Positions 5,436 to 44,434 of a stretch of 44,509 nucleotides of DNA are shown here, piece by piece. The translations under genes and the position numbers were made by a program. Within the stretch, counting starts at the first letter, position 1, and every line of letters begins with the position of its first letter. Under the pieces are notes generated by a model. That model saw nothing but the letters and a program-made list of their open reading frames with translations, made no database searches and was not told the DNA's origin. Source of the stretch: Candidatus Nomurabacteria bacterium RIFCSPHIGHO2_01_FULL_37_25 (lineage in GTDB: Bacteria; Patescibacteriota; Minisyncoccia; Phycocordibacterales; UBA9973). The stretch lies in contig MFTH01000003.1 in the NCBI GenBank assembly GCA_001786765.1, positions 1 to 44,509 of the forward strand. The letters are read 5' to 3'.

Positions 5436-6224
5436 CTATCGAAGTTTGTATTTACCTTGTCCAACGAAATCAAGATACTGTTTATCACGTGGGAATTGTA
5501 ATTGCTGGCGGATTTTGTCTTTAATATGTTTATTTTCCGGATGAATAACTTTTAAATCAGGTTCAAAATTATAAACATCTTGCAGATAAAATTCCTTTTT
5601 ATTCAAAGAATCAATACAATTCATAATATCCAAAATCCAACCTTTTGCATCTGCTTTCTTAACTTCTTTGAGAAAAATTGTTTTCTGCCATTTGTCTAAA
5701 ACTTGTTTTTTTGAAATTTCTTTTCCGTCTTCAATATAAAATATCTGACCTGCTTTCGGTATCTTTGAAAACAAAATATTAGAACCAACCCAACCTGCTC
5801 TGCGTGCAGTTTTTTAAAGTGGTTTCCTTTTTTCAATAATTTCAGAAATAAAAAAGTGTTTAGGCACAACAAAAAAGTCATTTACATAAAAAGACTCTAA
5901 ATAACCCACAAAGAAGAAATTGGGTTTTGTAGTAGAATTTATTCTTTCAATCATTTTTGAATAAGCTCCCGCAGGCACAGTTTTACCAATTTTTCCTTTT
6001 TTAGATTTTAACTCAAAATCTTCATTACATTTTTTGCAATAGAAATCAGCAACTGGTTTATTATTTTCATATTCATAAATTTTTACCGCTCCACAATTTG
6101 GACAATATATTTGATTTAAAACCCAATCTTCGCTTAAAACACGAATTTTTTGGGAAGCACTTATGTAGTTATCTGTAATATTTTCTGCAAAAGATACATT
6201 GATTTTTCGTTCGGCTACTACCAT
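5436..6224 (-). pseudogene. DpnI/Dam-replacing-family methyl-directed endonuclease with one in-frame TAA
   Basis: SQKIRVLSEDW, YCPNCG, NNKPVADFYC, ELKSKK, then RKPL*KTARRAGW and KDKIRQQLQ; the two track ORFs are in the same frame (stop at 5814-5816). Confidence 0.9.
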
Positions 6225-8660: not shown

Positions 8661-8804
8661 TTAAGTTTTATAATTTAATGCTATCACGGAACTGGCTAAA
8701 AATGAAGTTTTTTCGGTTTCAGACCTTGTAAAATCAGTAAAAAAGTGATATTATGTATATCACCTATACAAAAGAGTGATTTTGAATCAACCAATTCTAT
8801 CCTG

Positions 8805-8876
8805 CTCCGGGGGTAGGGATCGAACCTACGACCAATCGCTTAACAGGCGATCGCTCTACCACTGAGCTACCCCGGA
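8805..8876 (-). tRNA. tRNA-Asn(GTT)
   Basis: 72-nt cloverleaf TCCGGGG...CCCCGGAG; anticodon arm ATCGC-CTGTTAA-GCGAT; T-loop GGTTCGAT; full CCA not encoded. Confidence 0.97.
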
Positions 8877-9119
8877 ATATTTATTTTTTAATTTTTCTTT
8901 ACCATATCCTGATTTCCAATATTTTTCTCTGCTTCTCGCATAAGTTCTATTTGTCCCAGTTTTTTCAAAAAATATCTGAACCCAAGGACGAAAACCTTTT
9001 GTAGAAAAAACTTTTCCATTATTATGTTCCAACAATCTTTTTCCTGGGTTTTGGCTCATACCTACATAAATTCTATCGTCCTTTGTGCTTTTAATAGCAT
9101 AAACAAAAAATTCTTTCAT
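8856..9119 (-). CDS. Stand-alone GIY-YIG nuclease
   Basis: FVYAIKS...IYVGMS...RLLEHN...AR-REKYWK motifs; the last codons (SGVAQW*) lie inside the tRNA 5' end. Confidence 0.9.
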   Translation of the reverse strand: MKEFFVYAIKSTKDDRIYVGMSQNPGKRLLEHNNGKVFSTKGFRPWVQIFFEKTGTNRTYARSREKYWKSGYGKEKLKNKYSGVAQW

Positions 9120-9133
9120 AATTTTATGATATC

Positions 9134-9187
9134 ACAGGCGATCGCTCCCTGCCTGCCGGCAGGCAGGTACCACTGAGCTACCCCGGA
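9134..9187 (-). pseudogene. Duplicated 5' half of tRNA-Asn interrupted by a 20-bp palindrome
   Basis: Identical to the tRNA 5' half up to ...GCCTGT of the anticodon loop once 9148-9167 is removed. Confidence 0.9.
9148..9167. repeat. Perfect 20-bp palindromic element
   Basis: CCTGCCTGCC|GGCAGGCAGG. Confidence 0.9.
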
Positions 9188-9203
9188 ATATTATTTATAA
9201 TAC

Positions 9204-16701: not shown

Positions 16702-17277
16702 ATGGATAAAGCTTTTGCGGTACGCACACAAGAGGAAATGCTGGATGTTTTGATGACTCCGGAATCTAGCGGACCGGATGTTCACTATTTTATGATTCGG
16801 GGAGGCAGTGAGAAAAAAAATATTACTATCTGGCAAGCCGGATTAGTCGGCGAAGAATATATTAAAACTTACGGGCATTATCATGTTAGTGATTTTATAG
16901 AAACTTACACAGTGCTTGCGGGTGAGGGAATAATTCTTTTACAAAATAGAAAAATAAATGAGAAAGGAATTTTAATTGATGACGAGGTGGAAGAGGCGCG
17001 GGCGATTTTTGTCAAAGCCGGTAGCGTTGTGCAAATACCTAAAAATGCTGGGCATCTTGCTGTAAACACAGGGGAATCATGGCTGGTAACATCAGACGAT
17101 AGTCCAGTTAATTTAAATAAAATGAACGAAGCCGCTTGGCCTGTGCATGCGGATTATGAGCCAGTCAGGAAACTCCACGGTTTTGCTTATTATGTCGTGA
17201 AAAAAAATGGCAAGCCTTTTTTTATTAAAAACGAAAACTATAAAAATGTTCCCGAAATCATTATAGAAAACGCATAA
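16702..17277 (+). CDS. Cupin-type (archaeal-like) glucose-6-phosphate isomerase family protein
   Basis: EYIKTYGHYH...ETYTVLAGEGIILLQ and GHLAVNTG. Confidence 0.8.
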   Translation: MDKAFAVRTQEEMLDVLMTPESSGPDVHYFMIRGGSEKKNITIWQAGLVGEEYIKTYGHYHVSDFIETYTVLAGEGIILLQNRKINEKGILIDDEVEEARAIFVKAGSVVQIPKNAGHLAVNTGESWLVTSDDSPVNLNKMNEAAWPVHADYEPVRKLHGFAYYVVKKNGKPFFIKNENYKNVPEIIIENA

Positions 17278-17395
17278 TCCCGTTAGAAGTCGCGATCGCG
17301 TTTAATTAATATAAATATGAAAGAAGATATAAATAAAATTAATAGCATAATTTATCAGATGCGAAATACGATCGCGATCTGCTTCTAAACGGGAT
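17277..17395. mobile_element. CCCGTTAGA/TCTAACGGG miniature element, copy upstream of glgA
   Basis: TIR ATCCCGTTAGAAG...CTTCTAAACGGGAT overlaps the glgA ATG; internal uORF at 17317..17388. Confidence 0.85.
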
Positions 17396-18896
17396 GAAAA
17401 TATTTTCCTCCAATATCCATAAAAAAATCCGGCCGCTGAAAATTTTATTTGTTGGAAGCGAGATAGCGCCTTTTATAAAAATCGGAGGATTGGGAGAAGT
17501 TTTGCAAGCCTTGCCGAAAGCCCTTTCAGAGCTTGGGCATGATATAAGGACGATGACGCCTAAATATGCGTCAATAGACGAGAAAGAATTTCCTATGACT
17601 GTAATTTTAGACGGGCTTTTGGTTCCAAATTCGGATAGCGAAGATCTAATATGTAATGTGAAAAAATATAAAAATGGCGAGAGCCCAGTAAACTATTTTT
17701 TAGAAAACCAAGAATATTATGAAAAAAGAGGCAGCGTCTATGGCTATGATGACGACCCTGCTCGTTGGGCGCTACTTGCAAAGGGCACTTTGGAATTTAT
17801 AAGGCATAAAATGAATGAATGGAAGCCTGATATAATTGTCGCTAACGATTGGCAAGGGGGATTGATACCAAATTATATGAAATGTGAATACAGCAAAGAC
17901 CCCATAATTTCTAAAATCGCTTCCACTTTTATCATTCACAATATTTATTATCAAGGAATGTTTGACCATAAACATACGAGTGAACTCGACTATGATGATG
18001 GACAGTCCCAAGTTCCTTCCATTACTGATCCAAGGCTACTTAAAATAAATTTTATGCGTCGGGGGATTCGTTATGCGGATGTAATAAATACTGTTTCTCC
18101 AAATTATGCGCGGGAGATTACTACTCCTCAGTACGGAGAAGGTTTAGACCAACTATTGCAAGAAAGGCGAAGCAGACTTTTTGGAATTCTGAATGGTATA
18201 AATTATGAGAATTATAATCCGGAGACAAATCCTTATGTTGAATTCAAATATAACGAGGATAATTTAGACGAACGGATAAAAAATAAAAAAATATTGCAAC
18301 AAAAATTTAATTTACCAGAAAAAAAAGACGCTTTTTTGGTAAGTATAATCGGCCGTCTGGCGGAACAAAAGGGTATTAATTTGGTAGCTGATACAATCGA
18401 GCCTCTGCTTGAGAATTTTGATTTTCAATTCATAATATTAGGAGCGGGAGAATCGCATTTTGCCGATTTTTTTGGCGAGCTTGATAAAAAATACAAAAAT
18501 GTGGCTACGCATCTTTCTTTTGACAATATTTTACCACATAGTATTTACGCTGGAGCCGATGCTATCCTCATTCCTTCTCGATTTGAGCCATGCGGATTGA
18601 CCCAGATGGAATCAATGCGCTACGGAGTCGTGCCGATAGTGCGAAAAACTGGAGGACTCGCTGACAGTGTCAAAGATCATACTTCCAGAGAGGATCCAGG
18701 TACTGGCTTTGTCTTTGAACACTATGATAAATATGCCTTTTTAGGCACTTTTATGCGCGCTTATGAAATATTCAAATACCCAAAAATTTGGCAAGAAATA
18801 CAGAAACGCGCAATGAAGGAGAATTTTTCTTGGGAAAAATCAGCCAAGGAATATGAGAAACTTTTTATGCGAGCCCTTAATCAACTTAATTCCTAA
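17394..18896 (+). CDS. glgA: Glycogen synthase (GT5)
   Basis: KIGGLGEV, ANDWQ, TIHN-like IIHN, VSPNYA, PSRFEPCGLTQM, RKTGGLADSV. Confidence 0.95.
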   Translation: MKIFSSNIHKKIRPLKILFVGSEIAPFIKIGGLGEVLQALPKALSELGHDIRTMTPKYASIDEKEFPMTVILDGLLVPNSDSEDLICNVKKYKNGESPVNYFLENQEYYEKRGSVYGYDDDPARWALLAKGTLEFIRHKMNEWKPDIIVANDWQGGLIPNYMKCEYSKDPIISKIASTFIIHNIYYQGMFDHKHTSELDYDDGQSQVPSITDPRLLKINFMRRGIRYADVINTVSPNYAREITTPQYGEGLDQLLQERRSRLFGILNGINYENYNPETNPYVEFKYNEDNLDERIKNKKILQQKFNLPEKKDAFLVSIIGRLAEQKGINLVADTIEPLLENFDFQFIILGAGESHFADFFGELDKKYKNVATHLSFDNILPHSIYAGADAILIPSRFEPCGLTQMESMRYGVVPIVRKTGGLADSVKDHTSREDPGTGFVFEHYDKYAFLGTFMRAYEIFKYPKIWQEIQKRAMKENFSWEKSAKEYEKLFMRALNQLNS

Positions 18897-18907
18897 AAGT
18901 AAATATG

Positions 18908-19028
18908 ATCCCGTTAGAAGCCACGATCACAATTTATAAAATAAAAATTATGAAAATAAATTTAGATAATATTACTAATTTAACTTATCAGATGCAAAAC
19001 ATGATTGCGATCTGCTTCTAAACGGGAT
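18908..19028. mobile_element. CCCGTTAGA/TCTAACGGG miniature element, copy upstream of GH57
   Basis: Same TIRs; internal uORF at 18950..19021, extendable to ATG 18905. Confidence 0.85.
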
Positions 19029-20514
19029 GAAATGGGCTAACTTTTTACATTTTTACCAACCAGCTGACCAGCAACCAGATATTTTGGAGGCAATCGTTAC
19101 GCAAAGCTATCGGCCGATTATCGAGGGTATAAAAAAAAATAAAAACGTTCATCTGACGATAAATATTAACGGCGCGCTTTTTGAATTGTTGAATAAATTT
19201 GGGCACAAAGACATAATTGAAGATTTGAAAAATTTAGTAAAAGAAGGCCGTATTGAAATAACAGGATCGGCAAAATATCACCCTCTCTTGCCGCTTCTAT
19301 CTGAGGAGGAAATAGAAAGACAAATAACATTAAACACAGAAACGCTAAAAAAATTTTTAGGAGATTACACTCCTAACGGATTTTTTTCTCCAGAAATGGC
19401 CTACGACGACAGAATCGGAAAGATTATAGAAAAACTTGGCTTTAAATGGCTTATTTTAGATGAAATTTCCTGTGGCGGAGAGGTGGGAGGTGTTGATTAC
19501 AATCAAATTTATAAACTAAAAGACACTGATTTTAAAGTTTTTTTTCGTAATCGAAGACTTTCTAATTTAATCATGAGCGCAGTCGTTCGATCTCGTGATA
19601 CTTTATTGGAAGCGATGCAAGACGAACTGAAAAGTGATGATTATATCGTGACTGCTATGGACGCGGAGACTTTTGGGCATCATCGACCAGGACTTGAAAA
19701 AATGCTTTTTGAAGTTTTTGACACTCCAGAATTTGAACTTGTAAAAATTTCCGATATTTCAAAATTTTACAAAGAAAAAAAAGAAATTTCTCCTGCCAAG
19801 GCTACTTGGGCGTCGAGTAAAGAAGATATAGACAATGGCATTCAATTTCTTTCGTGGAATGACCCAGAGAATATGATTCATGGCTGGCAGTGGAAATTTA
19901 CAAAACTCGTTTTGAATGAAGTTTATAGTATGAACAAAAATAATGAGCGTTATGAACTTGTGCGCGAGAAAATGGACAAAGCGCTAGCGTCAGATCATTT
20001 TTGGTGGGCATCCGCCAAACCCTGGTGGAGCCTAGAGATGATCGAAGATGGGTCATTTAATTTGCTTGACACTTTAAGGCATATTCCTGATGTAAAATTG
20101 GAAATCTTGTCTGAAGGAAGGGATTATTATGAGAAAATAATTACAACGGCTTTTAACTGGCAGCGCACTGGCAAAATAAGGATGATGATGCAATCACAAA
20201 GAGACATATTAAGGATTCCATTCAAAGACCGTACTTTGGGCCGTCCGGGGGCGGAAAATGTGTATTATGCTTTTCTAGCAATGATGGAAAAGCTAAAAAA
20301 AGAAGCAGCAAAACGCGGAGAATACGAGCAAGCAATTCTTTGGCGTGATGCGATTTATAAACTTAAACATAAATTGGATATTTATGACACTATGAATGCT
20401 ATCGATTTAGTGCGTGTGAAAATTCCCCACGAGGAGGTTGAGAAAACTATTATTGAATATGAAGAGAAATATCGTCGCATGCGTGGCGGGCAACCCGAGC
20501 AACGCGGAGGGTAA
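19027..20514 (+). CDS. Glycoside hydrolase family 57 protein
   Basis: HFYQP, GSAKYHPLLP, FSPEMA, DAETFGHH, SDHFWW. Confidence 0.9.
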   Translation: MKWANFLHFYQPADQQPDILEAIVTQSYRPIIEGIKKNKNVHLTININGALFELLNKFGHKDIIEDLKNLVKEGRIEITGSAKYHPLLPLLSEEEIERQITLNTETLKKFLGDYTPNGFFSPEMAYDDRIGKIIEKLGFKWLILDEISCGGEVGGVDYNQIYKLKDTDFKVFFRNRRLSNLIMSAVVRSRDTLLEAMQDELKSDDYIVTAMDAETFGHHRPGLEKMLFEVFDTPEFELVKISDISKFYKEKKEISPAKATWASSKEDIDNGIQFLSWNDPENMIHGWQWKFTKLVLNEVYSMNKNNERYELVREKMDKALASDHFWWASAKPWWSLEMIEDGSFNLLDTLRHIPDVKLEILSEGRDYYEKIITTAFNWQRTGKIRMMMQSQRDILRIPFKDRTLGRPGAENVYYAFLAMMEKLKKEAAKRGEYEQAILWRDAIYKLKHKLDIYDTMNAIDLVRVKIPHEEVEKTIIEYEEKYRRMRGGQPEQRGG

Positions 20515-33329: not shown

Positions 33330-34328
33330 ATGTTAAATCCAAATTTAAAATTAAATCCGAAAATTTTCAATGAGGACGTTGAGCAAGTGCCGATAAGGAA
33401 GGGTTTCGGTCAGGGGTTGCTTATAGCCGGCGAGATAAATAAAAATGTCGTGGCGCTTTGCGCGGATTTGACAGAGTCTACCATGATGAATTTTTTCAAA
33501 GAAAAATTCCCGGAGCGTTTTGTGGAAGTCGGTGTGGCAGAGCAAAATTTAGTTACGGTTGCTTCTGGTATGGCGGCTATGGGGAAAATCCCATTTTGTT
33601 CTTCTTACGCTATGTTTTCTCCGGGCAGGAATTGGGAGCAGATACGGACGACTATAGCTTATAATGACCGACCGGTAAAAATAGTCGGTTCGCACGCAGG
33701 TATTTCTGTCGGGCCAGATGGTGGCACACATCAAGCGCTTGAAGATATTGCTTTGATGCGAGTACTTCCAAATATGGATGTGTTTAGTCCATGCGACAGC
33801 ATAGAAGCCAAAAAAATGACGCTTGTTTTGGCTAAGACTAAGAGACCGGCATATTTGCGTTTAGCTCGTGAAAAGACCCCGGTAATAACAACAGAAGAAA
33901 CTCCTTTCACATTAGGCAAAGCAGAGATTTATTGGATGCCGGATGTGGGGTTGGTGCAAGTGGGGATAATTGTCACAGGAGGCCTGATGCACCGCGCATT
34001 GCTTGCGGCGAAAGAATTAGAAATGGAAGGAATAAAAACAAAAGTGCTAAATTTATCTTCCATTAAGCCGATAGATAAGGACGCCATAATATCTCTAGCA
34101 AAAGAAACTAAAAGAATTGTAACAGTAGAGGAACATCAAGTAGCTGGGGGAATGGGTTCCGCAGTCGCAGAAATTCTAGCTCAAAATTATCCAGCGCCAA
34201 TAGAGTTTATCGGAGTGCAAGATAAATTTGGCCAGAGTGGCACACCAGATGAGCTCGTAGAACATTACGGTATGGGTAAAGATTCTATCAAGAAAGCTGT
34301 GAAGAAAGTGTTAATCAGAAAAATCTAG
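33330..34328 (+). CDS. Transketolase C-terminal subunit
   Basis: GVAEQN, GPDGGTHQ, VEEH..GGMGS. Confidence 0.93.
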   Translation: MLNPNLKLNPKIFNEDVEQVPIRKGFGQGLLIAGEINKNVVALCADLTESTMMNFFKEKFPERFVEVGVAEQNLVTVASGMAAMGKIPFCSSYAMFSPGRNWEQIRTTIAYNDRPVKIVGSHAGISVGPDGGTHQALEDIALMRVLPNMDVFSPCDSIEAKKMTLVLAKTKRPAYLRLAREKTPVITTEETPFTLGKAEIYWMPDVGLVQVGIIVTGGLMHRALLAAKELEMEGIKTKVLNLSSIKPIDKDAIISLAKETKRIVTVEEHQVAGGMGSAVAEILAQNYPAPIEFIGVQDKFGQSGTPDELVEHYGMGKDSIKKAVKKVLIRKI

Positions 34329-34470
34329 AAAATTGAATTTTTTCAACACGCATATTTGCCAGCTGGCAAATTGCTATGCTCGTCGCTCAAGAAAATAATA
34401 AATGGAATACCATTTTTATTTTCTAAGCTTCTGCGCAATGTTTCAAAAACTCAATTTTCTAGATTTTTCT
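34317..34470. mobile_element. 154-bp MITE-like element whose TIRs supply both convergent stop codons
   Basis: Perfect 20-bp TIR AGAAAAATCTAGAAAATTGA (34317-34336 / 34451-34470) with internal hairpins. Confidence 0.85.
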
Positions 34471-35472: not shown

Positions 35473-35515
35473 GATAATATTGTAGCATATATTTTTAAAT
35501 ATAATACTTTGAATT

Positions 35516-35640
35516 ACGAAACTCTTTCTAGGCATGTCTTTTTCTAGGGTACGGATTTTTTTAAGCTTAAAAAATCCTGAAGTTCTCGGCTCGACAGCCT
35601 CGAAACCCCCTAAAAAAGACATGCCTTCGACGAGTTTCGT
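35516..35640. mobile_element. 125-bp nested-hairpin element, copy A
   Basis: TIR ACGAAACTC/GAGTTTCGT flanked by AATT; 124/125 identical to 41014..41138. Confidence 0.9.
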
Positions 35641-35664
35641 AATTCACGATATAATAACAATAAT

Positions 35665-39679: not shown

Positions 39680-41029
39680 ATGACTAAAGAAGAATTATTA
39701 CAAGAGCTTTCTATTAAAATAAATAGTGGAGAAATAAGTAAAGGAGAGGTATTAGGTCGTTTAAACTTATCCACAATAGCTTCGTCCATAGAAGCAAAAT
39801 TAAGAATTCCTTCTAGCTTTTCTGTCACTAAACTTTTATACGTTTTAGGAGCTATTATCGCAATAGCGGGAATGTTTCTTTTTTCTTATCAAATTTGGAA
39901 TGATATAGGCTCTATCGGTAGAATTTCCATCACTTTGGGTCTAGGTTTGATGCTTACGGCTATTGGGTCAGTATTATCCAGAAATAAAACAGAAGAGGAG
40001 GGAGACACTATCGGAACAATTTTTCATTTTATGGGTGGATTGCTCATTCCTGGTGGATCTTTGGTTGCTCTCTTTGAATTTAGCACAGGCATGGATCCTT
40101 CATGGCCACTCGCACTTACATTTGGAACTATCTTTTTGTTTTATTTATTAATAAACTACATACACAAAAATGCTGTCTTAACTTTCTTCACCATAGCAAA
40201 TGGCACAGCCTTTATCTATCTTCTAGTTGAAGCAATTACCGGTGGTTTATTTTATGATTATGTTAACTTATATGCTTACCTCACTATGGTAATAGGGGCA
40301 TGTTATATTTTACTCGCACATTCTTTTCGCGATAGTTGGAATAGCAAACTCGTTCCAGTACTATACTTCTTTGGTTTTATTGGCGTAGAGTCTGCCGTAT
40401 TTGTTCAATATAACAATGTTACTTCTTGGGGAAGTCAGCATTCTATGTGGCCGGTTGTATTTTCTTTAGGGTTAATATTTATATTTTATTTGTTTTTGAA
40501 CTTCTCTCTTAAAAATGTTTTTCTGACACTTCTGACTATTATGAATGGCACAGCGTTCATTTATGTATTGGTGGAGGCATTAATAGGTGGTTCGTATTCT
40601 TTTGACACAGATATATATATGTATTTAACCATGGTTATAGGCTTGGTTTACATGTTATTATCTTATTCATTCCGTGATGGTCCAAATAGTAAGTTGGTTG
40701 AAATTCTAAATTTTTTCGGCATTACCGGTTTGCTTGGAGCAGCGTTCTCTCAGATTTATGGATCACTGCCTTGGCAGTTGTCCTTCCTTGTTTTAGTCAT
40801 AGGAGGATTTGTTTTTTCTATATACGCTAAAAGTCGCGCCATATTGGTAATTAGCACTCTTTTTCTTTTAGCTCATGTTTCTTATATTACTAGTGAGTAC
40901 TTTGCCGACTCGCTTGGTTGGCCTATCTCTCTTGTGATTCTCGGTTTTATATTTATAGGGCTTGGTTATCTCTCAATTAATATAAATAAGAAATATATTA
41001 AAGATCGTGAATTACAAAACTCTTTCTAG
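39680..41029 (+). CDS. Polytopic membrane protein (DUF2157-like) with an internal duplication
   Basis: More than 12 TM segments; the NGTAFIY...YLTMVIG...SFRD..NSKLV block occurs twice. Confidence 0.75.
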   Translation: MTKEELLQELSIKINSGEISKGEVLGRLNLSTIASSIEAKLRIPSSFSVTKLLYVLGAIIAIAGMFLFSYQIWNDIGSIGRISITLGLGLMLTAIGSVLSRNKTEEEGDTIGTIFHFMGGLLIPGGSLVALFEFSTGMDPSWPLALTFGTIFLFYLLINYIHKNAVLTFFTIANGTAFIYLLVEAITGGLFYDYVNLYAYLTMVIGACYILLAHSFRDSWNSKLVPVLYFFGFIGVESAVFVQYNNVTSWGSQHSMWPVVFSLGLIFIFYLFLNFSLKNVFLTLLTIMNGTAFIYVLVEALIGGSYSFDTDIYMYLTMVIGLVYMLLSYSFRDGPNSKLVEILNFFGITGLLGAAFSQIYGSLPWQLSFLVLVIGGFVFSIYAKSRAILVISTLFLLAHVSYITSEYFADSLGWPISLVILGFIFIGLGYLSININKKYIKDRELQNSF

Positions 41030-41138
41030 GCATGTCTTTTTCTAGGGTACGGATTTTTTTAAGCTTAAAAAATCCTGAAGTTCTCGGCTCGACAGCCTCG
41101 AAACCCCCTAAAAAAGACATGCCTTCGACGAGTTTCGT
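41014..41138. mobile_element. 125-bp nested-hairpin element, copy B
   Basis: Same internal orientation as 35516..35640, one mismatch at 41016; provides the TAG of the upstream gene. Confidence 0.9.
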
Positions 41139-41182
41139 AATTCAAAGTTAAAGAATAATTAAAAAATAATAAAAAATCACTT

Positions 41183-41211
41183 TTGCAAAAAAGTGGTTTT
41201 TTATGTATTAT
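41183..41211 (+). promoter_or_regulatory. sigma70 promoter for leuS, embedded in a hairpin at 41171-41202
   Basis: TTGCAA-17 bp-TATTAT, then 6 nt to ATG 41218. Confidence 0.7.
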
Positions 41212-41221
41212 AAAAGAATGA

Positions 41222-41304
41222 ATCCCGTTAGAAGCCGCGGTCGCAATAATTATAAGGTTGAATTAAGTAGTCACGGTATGACCGCGACCTGCTTCTAACG
41301 GGAT
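41222..41304. mobile_element. CCCGTTAGA/TCTAACGGG miniature element at the leuS start
   Basis: TIR ATCCCGTTAGAAG/CTTCTAACGGGAT; ATGAA direct repeat at 41218-41222 and 41303-41307. Confidence 0.9.
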
Positions 41305-44300
41305 GAAAGAATACGACCATAAAAAATTAGAGAAGAAATGGCAATCTATTTGGGAAAAAAAGAAAATATATCAAGCTCAAAACTCTTTTAAAAAACCCAA
41401 GTATTATAGTCTAATCGAGTTTCCTTATCCTTCTGGTGATGGGCTTCATGTCGGTCATCCGCGACCTTATATTGGGATGGATGTTATTTCTAGAAAAAGA
41501 AGGATGGAAGGTTTTAATGTCCTTTATCCTATAGGTTGGGATGCTTTTGGTTTGCCGACGGAAAATTATGCTATCAAGACAGGCAAGGACCCGCGAGTTG
41601 TCACTAAAGAAAATACTGATACTTTTCGTGGGCAAATAAAATCACTTGGCATTTCTTTTGATTGGTCGCGGGAGATAAATACGACTGACCCAAAATATTA
41701 CAAATGGACGCAGTGGATATTCTTGCAATTTTTAAAAAAAGGTTTGGCGTATAAAGCCAAAATGACGATCAATTGGTGTCCGAAATGTAAAATTGGTCTT
41801 GCTAATGAAGAGGTTGTCAATAATTCTTGCGAGCGTTGCGGAACGACAGTGGAGAAACGCAAAAAAGAACAATGGATGCTCGCCATTACTAAATACGCAG
41901 ATAGATTAGATAAAGATTTAGATGATGTAGATTATCTTCCTCAAATCAAACTAGGACAAAGGAATTGGATAGGACGGAGCGAAGGGGCAGAGATAGAATT
42001 TAAGATTACTGTGAAACAAAAAAATAATTTTGGCGCCTTCGCCCTCGGAGGCAAAGGACAGGGAACCCACGACGCTCAAAATCATTCTTTTGTTTCGCAG
42101 TCTGTAAAAGTTTTCACCACTCGACCTGATACTATTTTTGGAGTCACATTTATTGCTTTAGCGCCTGAAATCGCGAAAAAACTCACAGGTAAAGATTTTG
42201 GTATTAAGTCAGATGTTGATAGGGAAAATAAACAAAAAATAGGAGTGGATACCGGGCTTGAAGCAAAAAATCCCGCAAATGGCGAAATGATACCTGTTTT
42301 TGCGGTCAATTATGTATCAGCGGAATATGGCACCGGAGCTATTATGGGTGTGCCAGCGCATGACGAGAGAGATTTTGAATTTGCCAAGAAATATAATTTA
42401 CCGATTAAGGAAGTTATTGAACCGGTATTTGTTGATACTGAAGGTATTGACGCGGTGCAAAAAGATAAACCTATGGTAGAACGAGAAGCAATATTGGCTA
42501 TTGTTAAACATTGGTCGGAAGATAAATATCTGGGTCTAAAATGGAAAAAAGTTAATTGGGGAACTTTTATTAGTGGTGGAGTAGAAAAAGGTCAGACATC
42601 TGAACAAGCGGCTAGAGCCGAAATAGAAGAGGAAACAGGCTATTTTAATTTGAAATTAATTAAAACTCTTGGTCGTTATCATAGTAAATTTTTTCATACA
42701 CCAAAAAATGAAAATCGTTTTGGTCATTTTAACACTTTCTATTTTGAGTTAGAAAATGGGAAACAAAATGAAATATCTAAAGAAGAAAAAGAGAAACACG
42801 AAATATTGTGGCTTAGTCCCAAAGAGATAGAGAAATTTTTAACAACAGAAAGTTTGCGTTATAGGTGGAATATTTTACAGGGTTATAAAAAAATATATAC
42901 TGGCAGAGGAATTCTCGTCAATTCAGGTAAATTCTCTGGTATGGATTCGGAGAAAGCAAAGAAAGAAATTATAAAATTTGTTGGCGGGAAAGAAAAAACA
43001 ACTTTCAAACTTCGCGATTGGATTTTTTCAAGGCAAAGGTACTGGGGAGAACCGATACCGGTGATTTATTGTGAAAATTGCCGAGTCGGAAGCCTTGCTT
43101 CCGACAAACGGAAGCAAGGCTTCCGACTGGAAAATGCTGGCTGGATTCCAGTGCCGGAAAAAGATTTACCAGTAGAACTTCCAAAAGTTAAAAATTATCA
43201 GCCGACGGATAGCGGAGAATCACCGCTTGCGAATATTCCAAAATGGGTGAATGTAAAATGTCCGCAGTGTAAAGGTAAAGCTAAAAGAGAAACAGACACA
43301 ATGCCGAATTGGGCAGGTTCTAGCTGGTATTATCTTCGTTATACTGATGATAAAAACAAAAAAGAATTCGCTTCACAGAAAAATCTACGCTATTGGTTAG
43401 GGGTTGACCCCGTTAGAGAAAGGTCGCCCCAAGGTGACCGAAGCACTGCCTCTGGCAGGGCGTTCTCTAACGAGGTTGACCCCGTTAGAGAAAGGTCGCC
43501 CCAAGGTGACCGAAGCACTGCCTCTGGCAGGGCGTTCTCTAACGGGGTGGATTGGTACAATGGGGGAAATGAGCATACGACACTGCATCTTCTATATTCT
43601 CGTTTTTGGCATAAATTTCTTTTTGATTTAAAACTAGTCCCTACTAATGAGCCATATATGAAAAGAACTTCGCACGGACTTATTTTAGCCGAAGGCGGGG
43701 AAAAAATGTCTAAATCCAAGGGCAATGTTATTAATCCGAATGATATTGTGAAAATATATGGAGCAGATACGCTTAGATTGTATGAAATGTTTATGGGTCC
43801 GTTTGATCAGGCGATAGCTTGGAGCGAAGAAGCAATCATTGGCCCGAGGAGATTTTTGGAAAAAGTTTGGAGAATAGGAATGTCAAAGTGTCTCTTTGAC
43901 AAAAAATCACCAATGTCAAAGAGACACTTTGACATTACGAGACTTCTTCATAAAACCATCAAAAAAGTATCCGAAGATATAGAAGAAATGCGTTTTAATA
44001 CAGCAATTTCCGCGCTGATGATACTTGCAACAGAAATGGAAAAAGCTGAAAAGCTAACACCTGAAAGCTATAAGCTATTCCTGCAAATTCTTGCGCCATT
44101 TGCGCCACACATTGCAGAAGAGCTTTGGCAGAATCTGGCTCCCCAAGGTCTCGCCTTTGGCTTTCTTAAAGCGAGACCTTCTTCCTCCAGTATTCATTCC
44201 TCAGCTTGGCCGAAGTGGGATGAGAATTTAATAAAAGATGAAGAAATAAAAATTATAATTCAGATAAATGGAAAAGTTAGAACGGAGATTGTTATACAGG

Positions 44301-44434
44301 CTGATGATAAAGAAGAAGATGTAAAGAAGCAAGCTCTTGCCAATGAAGTTGTTTTGAGACACACAGAAGGCAAAGAAATCAAAAAGACTATTTATGTAAA
44401 AGATAGACTTATTAACATTGTTTTATCAAATTAA
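41303..44434 (+). CDS. leuS: Leucine--tRNA ligase with a Nudix domain insert and several in-frame palindromic inserts
   Basis: FPYPSG, LHVGH, GWDAFGLP, FTTRPDT, RQRYWGEPIP, KMSKS. Confidence 0.97.
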   Translation: MKEYDHKKLEKKWQSIWEKKKIYQAQNSFKKPKYYSLIEFPYPSGDGLHVGHPRPYIGMDVISRKRRMEGFNVLYPIGWDAFGLPTENYAIKTGKDPRVVTKENTDTFRGQIKSLGISFDWSREINTTDPKYYKWTQWIFLQFLKKGLAYKAKMTINWCPKCKIGLANEEVVNNSCERCGTTVEKRKKEQWMLAITKYADRLDKDLDDVDYLPQIKLGQRNWIGRSEGAEIEFKITVKQKNNFGAFALGGKGQGTHDAQNHSFVSQSVKVFTTRPDTIFGVTFIALAPEIAKKLTGKDFGIKSDVDRENKQKIGVDTGLEAKNPANGEMIPVFAVNYVSAEYGTGAIMGVPAHDERDFEFAKKYNLPIKEVIEPVFVDTEGIDAVQKDKPMVEREAILAIVKHWSEDKYLGLKWKKVNWGTFISGGVEKGQTSEQAARAEIEEETGYFNLKLIKTLGRYHSKFFHTPKNENRFGHFNTFYFELENGKQNEISKEEKEKHEILWLSPKEIEKFLTTESLRYRWNILQGYKKIYTGRGILVNSGKFSGMDSEKAKKEIIKFVGGKEKTTFKLRDWIFSRQRYWGEPIPVIYCENCRVGSLASDKRKQGFRLENAGWIPVPEKDLPVELPKVKNYQPTDSGESPLANIPKWVNVKCPQCKGKAKRETDTMPNWAGSSWYYLRYTDDKNKKEFASQKNLRYWLGVDPVRERSPQGDRSTASGRAFSNEVDPVRERSPQGDRSTASGRAFSNGVDWYNGGNEHTTLHLLYSRFWHKFLFDLKLVPTNEPYMKRTSHGLILAEGGEKMSKSKGNVINPNDIVKIYGADTLRLYEMFMGPFDQAIAWSEEAIIGPRRFLEKVWRIGMSKCLFDKKSPMSKRHFDITRLLHKTIKKVSEDIEEMRFNTAISALMILATEMEKAEKLTPESYKLFLQILAPFAPHIAEELWQNLAPQGLAFGFLKARPSSSSIHSSAWPKWDENLIKDEEIKIIIQINGKVRTEIVIQADDKEEDVKKQALANEVVLRHTEGKEIKKTIYVKDRLINIVLSN
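42008..42101. mobile_element. 94-bp in-frame MITE-like insert in leuS
   Basis: Long terminal stem ACTGTGAAACAAAA/TTTTGTTTCGCAGT with inner hairpins. Confidence 0.8.
43084..43128. repeat. 45-bp in-frame hairpin insert in leuS
   Basis: Perfect 20-bp arms AGTCGGAAGCCTTGCTTCCG with an ACAAA loop. Confidence 0.9.
43405..43548. mobile_element. Tandem 2 x 72-bp CCCGTTAGA/TCTAACGGG element in frame in leuS
   Basis: Encodes (DPVRERSPQGDRSTASGRAFSNE/GV)x2; the two units differ by very few bases. Confidence 0.92.
43879..43936. repeat. 58-bp in-frame inverted repeat in leuS
   Basis: Perfect 23-bp arms AATGTCAAAGTGTCTCTTTGACA with a 12-nt loop; the 22-mer also occurs at 38333-38354. Confidence 0.9.
44145..44180. 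repeat. 36-bp in-frame hairpin insert in leuS
   Basis: AAGGTCTCGC...GCGAGACCTT; encodes QGLAFGFLKARP. Confidence 0.8.

Follow-up and report, generated by a model that had tools for sequence, protein, structure and literature searches.

The gene for leucyl-tRNA synthetase (leuS, encoding LeuRS) in a 44,509-nt contig of Candidatus Nomurabacteria bacterium RIFCSPHIGHO2_01_FULL_37_25 (GenBank assembly GCA_001786765.1, contig MFTH01000003.1, positions 1 to 44,509; hereafter, the window) begins at the very edge of a palindrome, and comparison with related loci confirms that this palindrome is a real insertion of a small non-coding mobile element. The source is an AT-rich metagenome-assembled genome (MAG) of Patescibacteria (the candidate phyla radiation, or CPR), and the element is a member of a large Patescibacterial superfamily of miniature inverted-repeat transposable elements, or MITEs, that is apparently undescribed. 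The best explanation of the locus, which we consider highly probable, is that a non-autonomous DNA transposon of this type, with the repeats TCCCGTTAGAAGC...GCTTCTAACGGGA, inserted in the first bases of leuS.

Insertion of a miniature element at the leuS start codon

An earlier, sequence-only reading of this stretch had placed a TTGCAA-17-TATTAT promoter 6 nt before ATG 41218, which opens a 26-codon open reading frame (ORF), and a restart of leuS 4 nt after the TAA of that ORF; these coordinates are correct, as is the presence of ATGAA on both sides of the element (Table 1). The distance of 6 nt between the end of the -10 box and ATG 41218 is the geometry of a leaderless gene. Shine-Dalgarno sequences are nearly absent from the genes of the window, many of which have a TATAAT-like -10 box 6-9 nt before the ATG, and in the related loci the distance from the -10 box to the ATG likewise peaks at 6 nt. 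The arm TAA (41296-41298) is followed by CGGG and then by the leuS ATG at 41303, at which the N-terminus of LeuRS, MKEYDHKK, aligns with those of 31 homologues. The inverted repeat ATCCCGTTAGAAGC/GCTTCTAACGGGAT is complementary at 14 of 14 nt, longer than stated in the earlier reading, and it therefore takes in the first two bases (A and T) of the leuS start codon. The element belongs to a short subfamily (79-nt core) of what we denote type 1, with a near relative in another genome (locus L020); its predicted RNA fold has an energy of -36.5 kcal/mol (z = -5.4), equalled by none of 200 shuffled sequences, and the folds of the other copies in the window are comparable. The identical LeuRS protein is found on 8 contigs (contig MFUR01000013.1 of GCA_001785715.1 and several aquifer metagenome contigs encode it), and the element is present in all five contigs that were retrieved.

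The evidence for insertion comes from loci without the element. The empty state on which the sequence-only reading had staked its claim, with the element and one repeat missing, was found in a syntenic relative (L126; LeuRS 66% identical, same upstream genes). There, the promoter is retained almost base for base, including TTGCAA-17-TATTAT, and the sequence continues with ggatagatATGAAGGAATACGACCAT, the leuS start ATGAAgGAATACGACCAT being kept; relative to this locus, the window contains 85 extra nucleotides, that is, the element plus one repeat. Similarly, three loci (L131, L133 and L134; GlgA 83-86% identical) contain the same GPI-glgA-GH57-phosphorylase operon as the window without the two type-1 copies, A and B, that lie in it: the GPI-glgA gap is 4-20 nt in these loci vs 116 nt in the window, and the glgA-GH57 gap is 1-6 nt vs 130 nt, with ATGAAATGGGC directly after the spacer. 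Of the features by which MITEs are recognized, terminal inverted repeats, a target duplication, small size without a transposase gene, many dispersed copies and orthologous empty sites were found. Copies at different genes of one genome are up to 95% identical, which suggests recent transposition; between genomes, 0.3% of the pairs reach 80%.

Table 1. Features of the leuS locus and element copies elsewhere in the window (coordinates are those of the window)
Feature	Position	Strand	Remarks
Type-1 copy A, 117 nt with T...A ends	17278-17394	+	between GPI stop and glgA ATG 17394
Type-1 copy B, 119 nt with T...A ends	18909-19027	+	before GH57 ATG 19027
Sigma-70-type leuS promoter	TTGCAA 41183-41188; TATTAT 41206-41211	+	17-nt spacer; same promoter in syntenic L126
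Original leuS ATG and left copy of target duplication	41218-41222	+	ATGAA (5 bp), or TGAA 41219-41222 (4 bp)
26-codon upstream ORF, MNPVRSRGRNNYKVELSSHGMTATCF*	41218-41298	+	old ATG through hairpin to arm TAA 41296-41298
Left terminal inverted repeat, ATCCCGTTAGAAGC	41222-41235	+	P-V-R-S in old-ATG frame
Miniature element, 81 nt with T...A ends	41223-41303	+	core CCCG...CGGG 41224-41302; nhmmer E = 3e-15
4-nt bulge, ACCT	41285-41288	+	conserved in family (ATCT/ACCT); makes the arms asymmetric
Right terminal inverted repeat, GCTTCTAACGGGAT	41291-41304	+	TAA, TGA and open S-N-G-M frames
Rebuilt leuS start, ATGAA	41303-41307	+	element's A plus TG of right duplication copy (TGAA 41304-41307)
leuS, host gene (LeuRS, 1043 aa)	41303-44434	+	Pfam
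Type-2 (C...G-ended) unit 1, in frame in leuS	43408-43475	+	encodes PVRERSPQGDRSTASGRAFSNE; flanks TTGA 43404-43407 and 43476-43479
Type-2 unit 2, tandem copy	43480-43547	+	99% identical; followed by TGGA 43548-43551

The window contains five units, as the sequence-only reading had counted: three of type 1 and two of type 2, the latter within leuS. A two-ended pattern search returned the three type-1 copies vs none expected by chance, and nhmmer also detected exactly three. The upstream ORFs (uORFs) of copy A (23 codons, 17317-17388) and copy B (18905-19021) both terminate at the arm TAA. The flanks given for other copies in the earlier reading are borne out at GH57 (ATGA-T, 18905-18909, on the left and ATGAA on the right) and around the leuS units, which are 72-nt repeats of 24 codons each with GTTGA / GTTGA / GTGGA flanks, but the left duplication of the glgA copy is not intact (left flank GCATAA-T). 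Unit 1 of type 2 is predicted to adopt a Y-shaped fold of -41.8 kcal/mol, and most LeuRS homologues lack such a unit.

Related elements across Patescibacteria

One-genome-per-species bacterial and archaeal contigs were scanned for the right-arm motif on the opposite strand, ATCCCG(N)TTAGAAGCAGRTC, which was found in at least 119 stretches of CPR species genomes. With the exception of a few automatically labelled MAGs, all the matches listed come from Patescibacteria, among them Nomura-, Levy-, Kaiser-, Sung-, Doudna-, Moran-, Lipton-, Buchanan-, Terry-, Jorgensen-, Taylor-, Harrison- and Kerfeldbacteria as well as Paceibacterota. Beyond the ...GGGAT that the pattern fixed, the matches listed continue with G, with two exceptions. 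A census of elements with the ends CCCG(N)TTAGA...TCTAA(N)CGGG in 940 kb of the motif-bearing loci listed, together with the window, yielded 137 small elements, 128 of which have an ATG directly at the end, so that the family layout can be written as ATGNN-T-[CCCG...CGGG]-ATGNN; element sizes are 60-166 nt. The left ATG is kept in 85 elements, and in 78 of these the 5-mers on the two sides are identical, compared with about 32% expected from 5-mer frequencies. The same flanks surround 33 elements with unrelated interiors that lie outside the pattern selection and have only 9-11-nt ends in common with the others. The junction ATG opens an ORF of at least 60 codons in 121 of the 128 cases vs 22% for random ATGs, and at leuS the right-hand ATG heads the gene, in agreement with the earlier claim that insertion regenerates the start codon. 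The genes downstream are unrelated housekeeping genes (encoding NrdR, PilC, a class I aminoacyl-tRNA synthetase, DnaB, aldolase, MurD, SecDF, MurG and LysRS). Two loci, L008:7673-7895 and L032:6503-6720, each carry two different family members stacked on a single start codon, with three successive ATGAA copies.

Across 108 copies, the arms of about 23 nt are nearly invariant between phyla, and the interiors are almost unalignable. At pair 5 of the inner stem, 49 copies have A-T, 38 have G-C and about 17 are mismatched, which bears out the covariation that the sequence-only reading had noticed between the copies in the window; the 4-nt bulge, ATCT in 56 copies and ACCT in 51, covaries with this pair. 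The bulged arm is on the gene side in 122 of the 124 matches and reversed copies number zero, in a test that would have detected about 73% of them. The conserved arms and compensatory pairs fit recognition by a trans-acting protein and a role in RNA alike. Our literature search produced no paper with these sequences, with MITEs at start codons or with MITEs in CPR, and neither subject comes up in a 2024 review of MITEs in prokaryotes.

The nature of the target emerges from comparison of the elements with T...A ends to those with C...G ends. The leuS type-2 units have C, not T, before the core and G after it, and a scan of metagenomes for CCCCGTTAGA...TCTAACGGGG recovered such C...G-ended elements from at least 120 loci with a GC content of 30-62%. 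Their flanks are a 4-bp TNNA duplication, identical in 75 of 132 cases (TTTA 25, TAAA 11, TTCA 8, TGAA 8, TTGA 6, TCAA 6), each 4-mer being about as frequent as its reverse complement, with a preference for a purine in front of the 4-mer and for a pyrimidine behind it, that is, R^TNNA^Y (carets mark junctions). Generally, the ends of the elements are (T/C)CCCGTTAGA...TCTAACGGG(A/G). The elements thus probably end in (T/C)CCCG...CGGG(A/G) and duplicate 4 bp; given the TNNA duplication of the C...G class, the leuS duplication is most simply the 4-bp TGAA, and ATGAA appears on both sides because the terminal base of the element is A. The 5-bp RTGRA-like target of the sequence-only reading therefore gives way to a duplicated 4-mer to which the element adds its terminal base, the bases that flank the TNNA duplications of the C...G class being variable. 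Among the elements outside the pattern selection that have intact duplications, the site is A^TGNN in 16 of 16 with T...A ends vs 2 of 9 with C...G ends, and the C...G class as a whole has TG at only about a quarter of its sites.

Within genes, the elements are found in frame. The two units in leuS occupy a site that reads YWT^PVDWYNGG in most LeuRS homologues; a strain variant (P0001/L135, 98% identical) has a single unit with GTTGA and GTGGA flanks, P0018 has a different 69-nt element with exact GTGGA flanks at the same site, P0077 is similar, and other homologues carry short in-frame remnants, such as LGNDPRHGGVD, which indicates that the inserts are translated and decay as peptide linkers. 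Translation can pass through both arms in some frames only (PVR...SNG or PLE...LTG); the rest run into a TAG (left arm) or a TAA (right arm), which explains the in-frame position of the survivors. C...G elements also lie in frame in the leaders of type IV prepilins, exactly at G^FTLIEL (L195:1543-1603, L161:303-363, L182:4019-4085), where the Gly-Phe motif for cleavage is restored by the end of the arm (...ACG GGG TTT), such that the leader is lengthened and the cleavage site is kept; one more is in frame in another small protein. In a different lineage (P0111/L136), a 60-nt element lies in frame on the leuS ATG, giving MNPVR...SNGMKE. The N-termini called for P0025 and P0111 run through elements (MKISNGMKKEY... 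and MNPVR...SNGMKE), an annotation artefact that is likely to recur systematically in CPR genomes.

LeuRS of these bacteria is variable in other respects as well. Residues 416-511 (window 42548-42835) are an inserted NUDIX domain that is present in nearly all of the 120 closest homologues and is thus a lineage-wide fusion. A near-perfect 27-nt hairpin at 43077-43135 (leuS residues ~592-611) coincides with an in-frame insert (RVGSLASDKRKQGFRLENA, about 18 aa) in the region of the CxxC...G zinc motif; it is absent from most homologues, P0016 has a different insert at this place, and it is apparently a representative of another family of in-gene palindromes. A perfect 23-nt inverted repeat in leuS (43879-43936) falls in a protein segment of variable length. 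Some Patescibacterial LeuRS proteins (P0003, P0037, P0042, P0058, P0066, P0080, P0033, P0051 and P0104) are 100-300 aa longer and contain endonuclease-type domains, DUF559/Vsr-like (PF04480) with PF18741, or alpha/beta-hydrolase domains, none of them flanked by arm peptides of the element. The DUF559/PF18741 insertions in LeuRS homologues were considered as an autonomous form of the element and were set aside, as they lack the flanking PVR...SNG arm peptides.

Start-codon siting and expression of the host gene

The course of events at leuS can be sketched as follows. The ancestral gene would have been leaderless, with the -10 box followed by 6 nt and then by ATGAAAGAATAC. Integration, presumably by an enzyme acting in trans, would have duplicated TGAA, which reads as ATGAA through the final A of the element, so that the old ATG would remain behind the promoter and a new ATG, composed of the element's A and the duplicated TG, would head the intact leuS ORF. 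Transcription may still start from the old ATG; ribosomes translating the 26-codon ORF would open the hairpin, terminate at the TAA of the arm and, 4 nt further on, re-initiate at the rebuilt ATG. The uORF at 41218-41298 is best regarded as a product of the insertion, and its translation and coupling to leuS are plausible.

The arms seem suited to such an arrangement. In the first frame of the right arm (...C TGC TTC TAA CGGG ATG), translation would stop 4-5 nt before the ATG; in the second, there is a stop at GGA TGA that overlaps the ATG when the fourth base is A; and the third (TCT AAC GGG ATG) is open into the gene, so that any upstream translation would end beside leuS or fuse to it. Both at leuS and in the related 79-nt copy of L020, the frame of the old leaderless ATG is open as far as the arm TAA, as would suit a ribosome that unwinds the hairpin, terminates and then reinitiates. 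Over the family, the TAA frame is open for at least 15 codons in 79 of 108 copies vs 21-31 in the other frames, and ATG-started uORFs that end at the TAA are present in 57 of 108 copies in the sense direction (57-61 with at least 15 codons) vs 8 of 106 in antisense. A conserved micropeptide was considered as the function of the element and rejected because the MKxNxxKINNL..RELIAICF uORF is confined to one subfamily; the most conserved stretch of this uORF (AAATTAAT...CAGR) is also seen in copies without an ORF, which suggests that conservation may be at the nucleotide level.

Several observations weigh against the account given above. The ORF from the old ATG reaches the arm TAA in only 16 of the 87 copies with an intact left ATG, and about 44% of the copies have no obvious uORF ending there; coupling is thus not the general way in which expression is kept. 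As the sequence-only reading had noted, the window encodes no cognate transposase: none of its ORFs contains a transposase domain, and no longer element with the same ends was found in the window or in 1.75 Mb of related loci. The arm motif had no match, and no longer element was seen, in viral contigs. The exact empty allele of the leuS site had no match in metagenomes. In addition, the insertion machinery that the two classes would share need not require an ATG, as the C...G class shows. The GIY-YIG, DpnI and NYN genes of the window were considered as sources of the mobilizing enzyme and discarded, given that they have no link to the element ends.

Sequence comparison supports the siting of the T...A class at start codons as an association. 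By crude gene calls, ATGRA sites number 332 at predicted starts, 1130 in non-coding and 3910 in coding sequence, so that neutral insertion followed by loss of the coding hits would leave about 23% of the elements at gene starts vs about 95% observed. Together with the long ORFs at the junction ATGs, this is the genome-wide enrichment at start codons by which the earlier reading had agreed to be judged. Its claim that the elements are drawn to start codons holds to the extent that the association is strong for the T...A class, but the C...G class has the looser TNNA target and often lies inside genes. The second codon is biased, too, with AA at 52% vs a background of 29%, GA at 20% vs 13%, and TT, AT and TC nearly absent. 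Because TG is present at only about a quarter of the C...G sites, the exclusive use of ATG by the T...A class is not yet assignable to targeting by the transposase over survivorship, and we give targeting and pure survivorship roughly comparable weights. Under survivorship, which falls only somewhat short of an even chance in our estimate, insertion would occur at any R^TNNA^Y, and T...A-ended, AT-rich, stop-filled copies would persist only at the A^TGNN of a first codon, where the terminal A restores the ATG, other insertions being lethal or quickly deleted in these very compact genomes. The symmetric TNNA spectrum and R...Y flanks of the C...G class point this way, as do the occurrence of C...G elements at ATGAA sites as well, where they give GTG starts, the open frames and lengths divisible by 3 of the in-gene survivors, and the intergenic gaps of just 1-20 nt in relatives with empty sites. 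Survivorship is harder to reconcile with the excess over the neutral model, crude as that model is, or with the 16 of 16 A^TGNN sites of T...A elements outside the pattern selection, for which the C...G spectrum predicts about 24% (P ~1e-10); nor does it readily explain why near-identical copies of one genome all lie at ATGs, why two elements are stacked on one start codon in both L008 and L032, and why no T...A copies lie directly after stop codons, a presumably harmless place. Alternatively, and as a tentative proposal, the T...A class could be a lineage specialized on start sites that is actively directed to A^TGRA at real starts, with arms that act as an expression-preserving cassette (the terminal A, two stop frames beside the ATG, an open third frame and, often, its own uORF) and possibly shape initiation in CPR. 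Such a lineage would lodge before essential genes in streamlined genomes devoid of Shine-Dalgarno sites, from where it would be removable only by precise excision. Insertion into the open promoter complexes of leaderless genes is possible but not required: a TAnnnT box is found 5-9 nt upstream of 45% of the element-bearing starts vs 30% of the control starts, and copies A and B are operon-internal.

Two further explanations were considered. The hairpin could be a host regulatory device: its arms would be kept as a cis-regulatory RNA in which the first two bases of the AUG are paired, serving CPR cells as a thermometer, as a protein-binding site, as a stabilizer of the 5' end or as an operator or coupler of translation, and mobility would be only how it spread. 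The near invariance of the arms across deep CPR lineages with diverged interiors, the compensatory changes in the inner stem, the strict orientation (122 to 0), the enriched uORF frame and the lack of Shine-Dalgarno sites in these genomes are all compatible with this possibility, which we nevertheless regard as unlikely: target duplications and empty sites are marks of selfish insertion, the host genes are functionally unrelated, and the same genes are expressed in close relatives that lack the element. Moreover, conservation of the arms is equally expected from recognition by a transposase, covariation in a DNA inverted repeat is no proof of a role in RNA, and there is no match to an Rfam family. 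Specifically, no element matched Rfam at the gathering level, none matched in 41000-43700 at E-values up to 1, and in 17150-19150 the only matches were sub-threshold ones to plant miRNA precursor hairpins. Removal of the element from the RNA, or its bypass by ribosomes, with the direct repeats as take-off and landing sites, appears highly improbable. The direct repeats do lie on both sides of the hairpin, and with only the core removed, leuS would be in frame with the old ATG (ATG AAT ^ ATG AAA), but the in-gene copies decay to in-frame peptide linkers (LGNDPRHGGVD etc.) and so are translated, the lengths of 109-126 nt at start sites obey no rule as to frame, the left ATG has been lost by mutation from many copies, and no ribozyme or intron match was found. 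Insertion of a MITE into the first bases of leuS thus remains the explanation that we prefer.

Known repeats, other features of the window and significance

Correia elements of Neisseria (CREE/NEMIS), about 100-150 bp long, are MITEs that have terminal inverted repeats, duplicate TA and lie near the 5' ends of genes; they are co-transcribed with the neighbouring genes, form hairpins and alter expression, and supply promoters as well as sites for IHF and RNase III. The CPR elements resemble them in size, terminal inverted repeats, short duplication and the hairpin near the gene 5' end, and differ in that Correia elements lie at variable distances upstream, are not known to split and rebuild start codons and are unrestricted in orientation and position. 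Termination-reinitiation and translational coupling occur in bacterial operons, and hairpin-bridged initiation is known for genes 38 and 25 of phage T4. As in these cases, there is a stop 4-5 nt before, or overlapping, the next ATG and a stable hairpin directly upstream of the initiation codon; there, however, the arrangement is native to the genes, whereas here, as read from the sequence, it would be delivered ready-made by a mobile element.

Rickettsia palindromic elements (RPEs) are short palindromic mobile repeats that are inserted in frame in protein-coding genes (Ogata et al. 2000, 2002, summarized in PMC10969869). Like RPEs, the CPR elements are short palindromic repeats in reduced genomes that lie in frame in genes, including essential ones, and add peptide; such in-frame peptide insertion is seen in the two 24-codon units of LeuRS as well as in L137, L252 and the prepilin leaders. 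The host phylum differs, and presumably the sequences do as well, so that RPEs are an analogy only; furthermore, RPEs have not been reported on start codons or as rebuilding them, in contrast to the CPR family, with its clear 4-bp duplications and a T...A class only at ATGs. REP/REPIN sequences are hairpin repeats with a GTAG or CGTC head that are mobilized in trans by RAYT (HUH/Y1) transposases; they lie outside genes, usually on the 3' side, and insert without duplicating the target (PMC3733652). The CPR elements are likewise abundant non-autonomous hairpins with conserved arms, variable loops and an enzyme presumably encoded elsewhere; unlike REPs, they lack such a head and duplicate 4 bp of the target, features more in keeping with a staggered cut of the DDE type. 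With ends of the form (T/C)CCCGTTAGA, no GTAG/CGTC head and duplications present, membership in REP/REPIN-RAYT was rejected, and so was an integron attC site (5'-RYYYAAC...GTTRRRY-3', cut at G^TT), because the arms, 5'-GTTAGAA...TTCTAAC-3', have the inverse order and are accompanied by target duplications.

Other repeats and small cassettes are present in the window. A second MITE-like family is represented at 35512-35650 and 41008-41144 by two 137-nt copies in the same orientation, about 99% identical, with inverted arms of about 34 nt, TGAATTACGAAACTC...GAGTTTCGTAATTCA, containing GGCATGTC; the 41008-41144 copy overlaps the 3' end of a DUF2157 gene just upstream of the leuS promoter, and the other copy overlaps the annotated 5' end of the PfkB ORF. 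A third long palindrome (34317-34470), with 32-nt arms that are 91% complementary and 90 nt apart, lies between the convergent genes for a transketolase C-terminal part and PfkB. The 5' part of a tRNA-Asn gene (8804-8876, minus strand) recurs about 300 nt away in two exact copies, one of 14 nt (9134-9147) and one of 25 nt (9168-9192); the repeats bracket an 87-aa GIY-YIG ORF (8856-9119), so that the whole looks like a small mobile cassette inserted at the tRNA gene. This tRNA gene is adjoined by a full-length LOOT RNA (RF03000; 8535-8656, minus strand; 83 bits vs a gathering threshold of 46). On the minus strand at 5436-6224, a DpnI-like restriction enzyme gene consists of two ORFs separated by 39 nt, one covering positions 2-131 of the DpnI profile and the other 147-182 together with DpnI_C, possibly through a frameshift or as a pseudogene.

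The first codon of genes would, then, be a previously undescribed niche for mobile DNA, where the design of the sequence would make insertion harmless. About 3-7% of the CPR gene starts sampled carry an element, from which gene callers derive spurious N-terminal extensions (MNPVR...SNGM, MKISNGM), and extra peptides have been added to conserved proteins, such as LeuRS and pilins. The conserved arms can serve as a strain marker for metagenomes. With a hairpin and a short ORF placed directly against the AUG, the elements are natural experiments on initiation in CPR, which may involve leaderless initiation, coupling or tolerance of structure.

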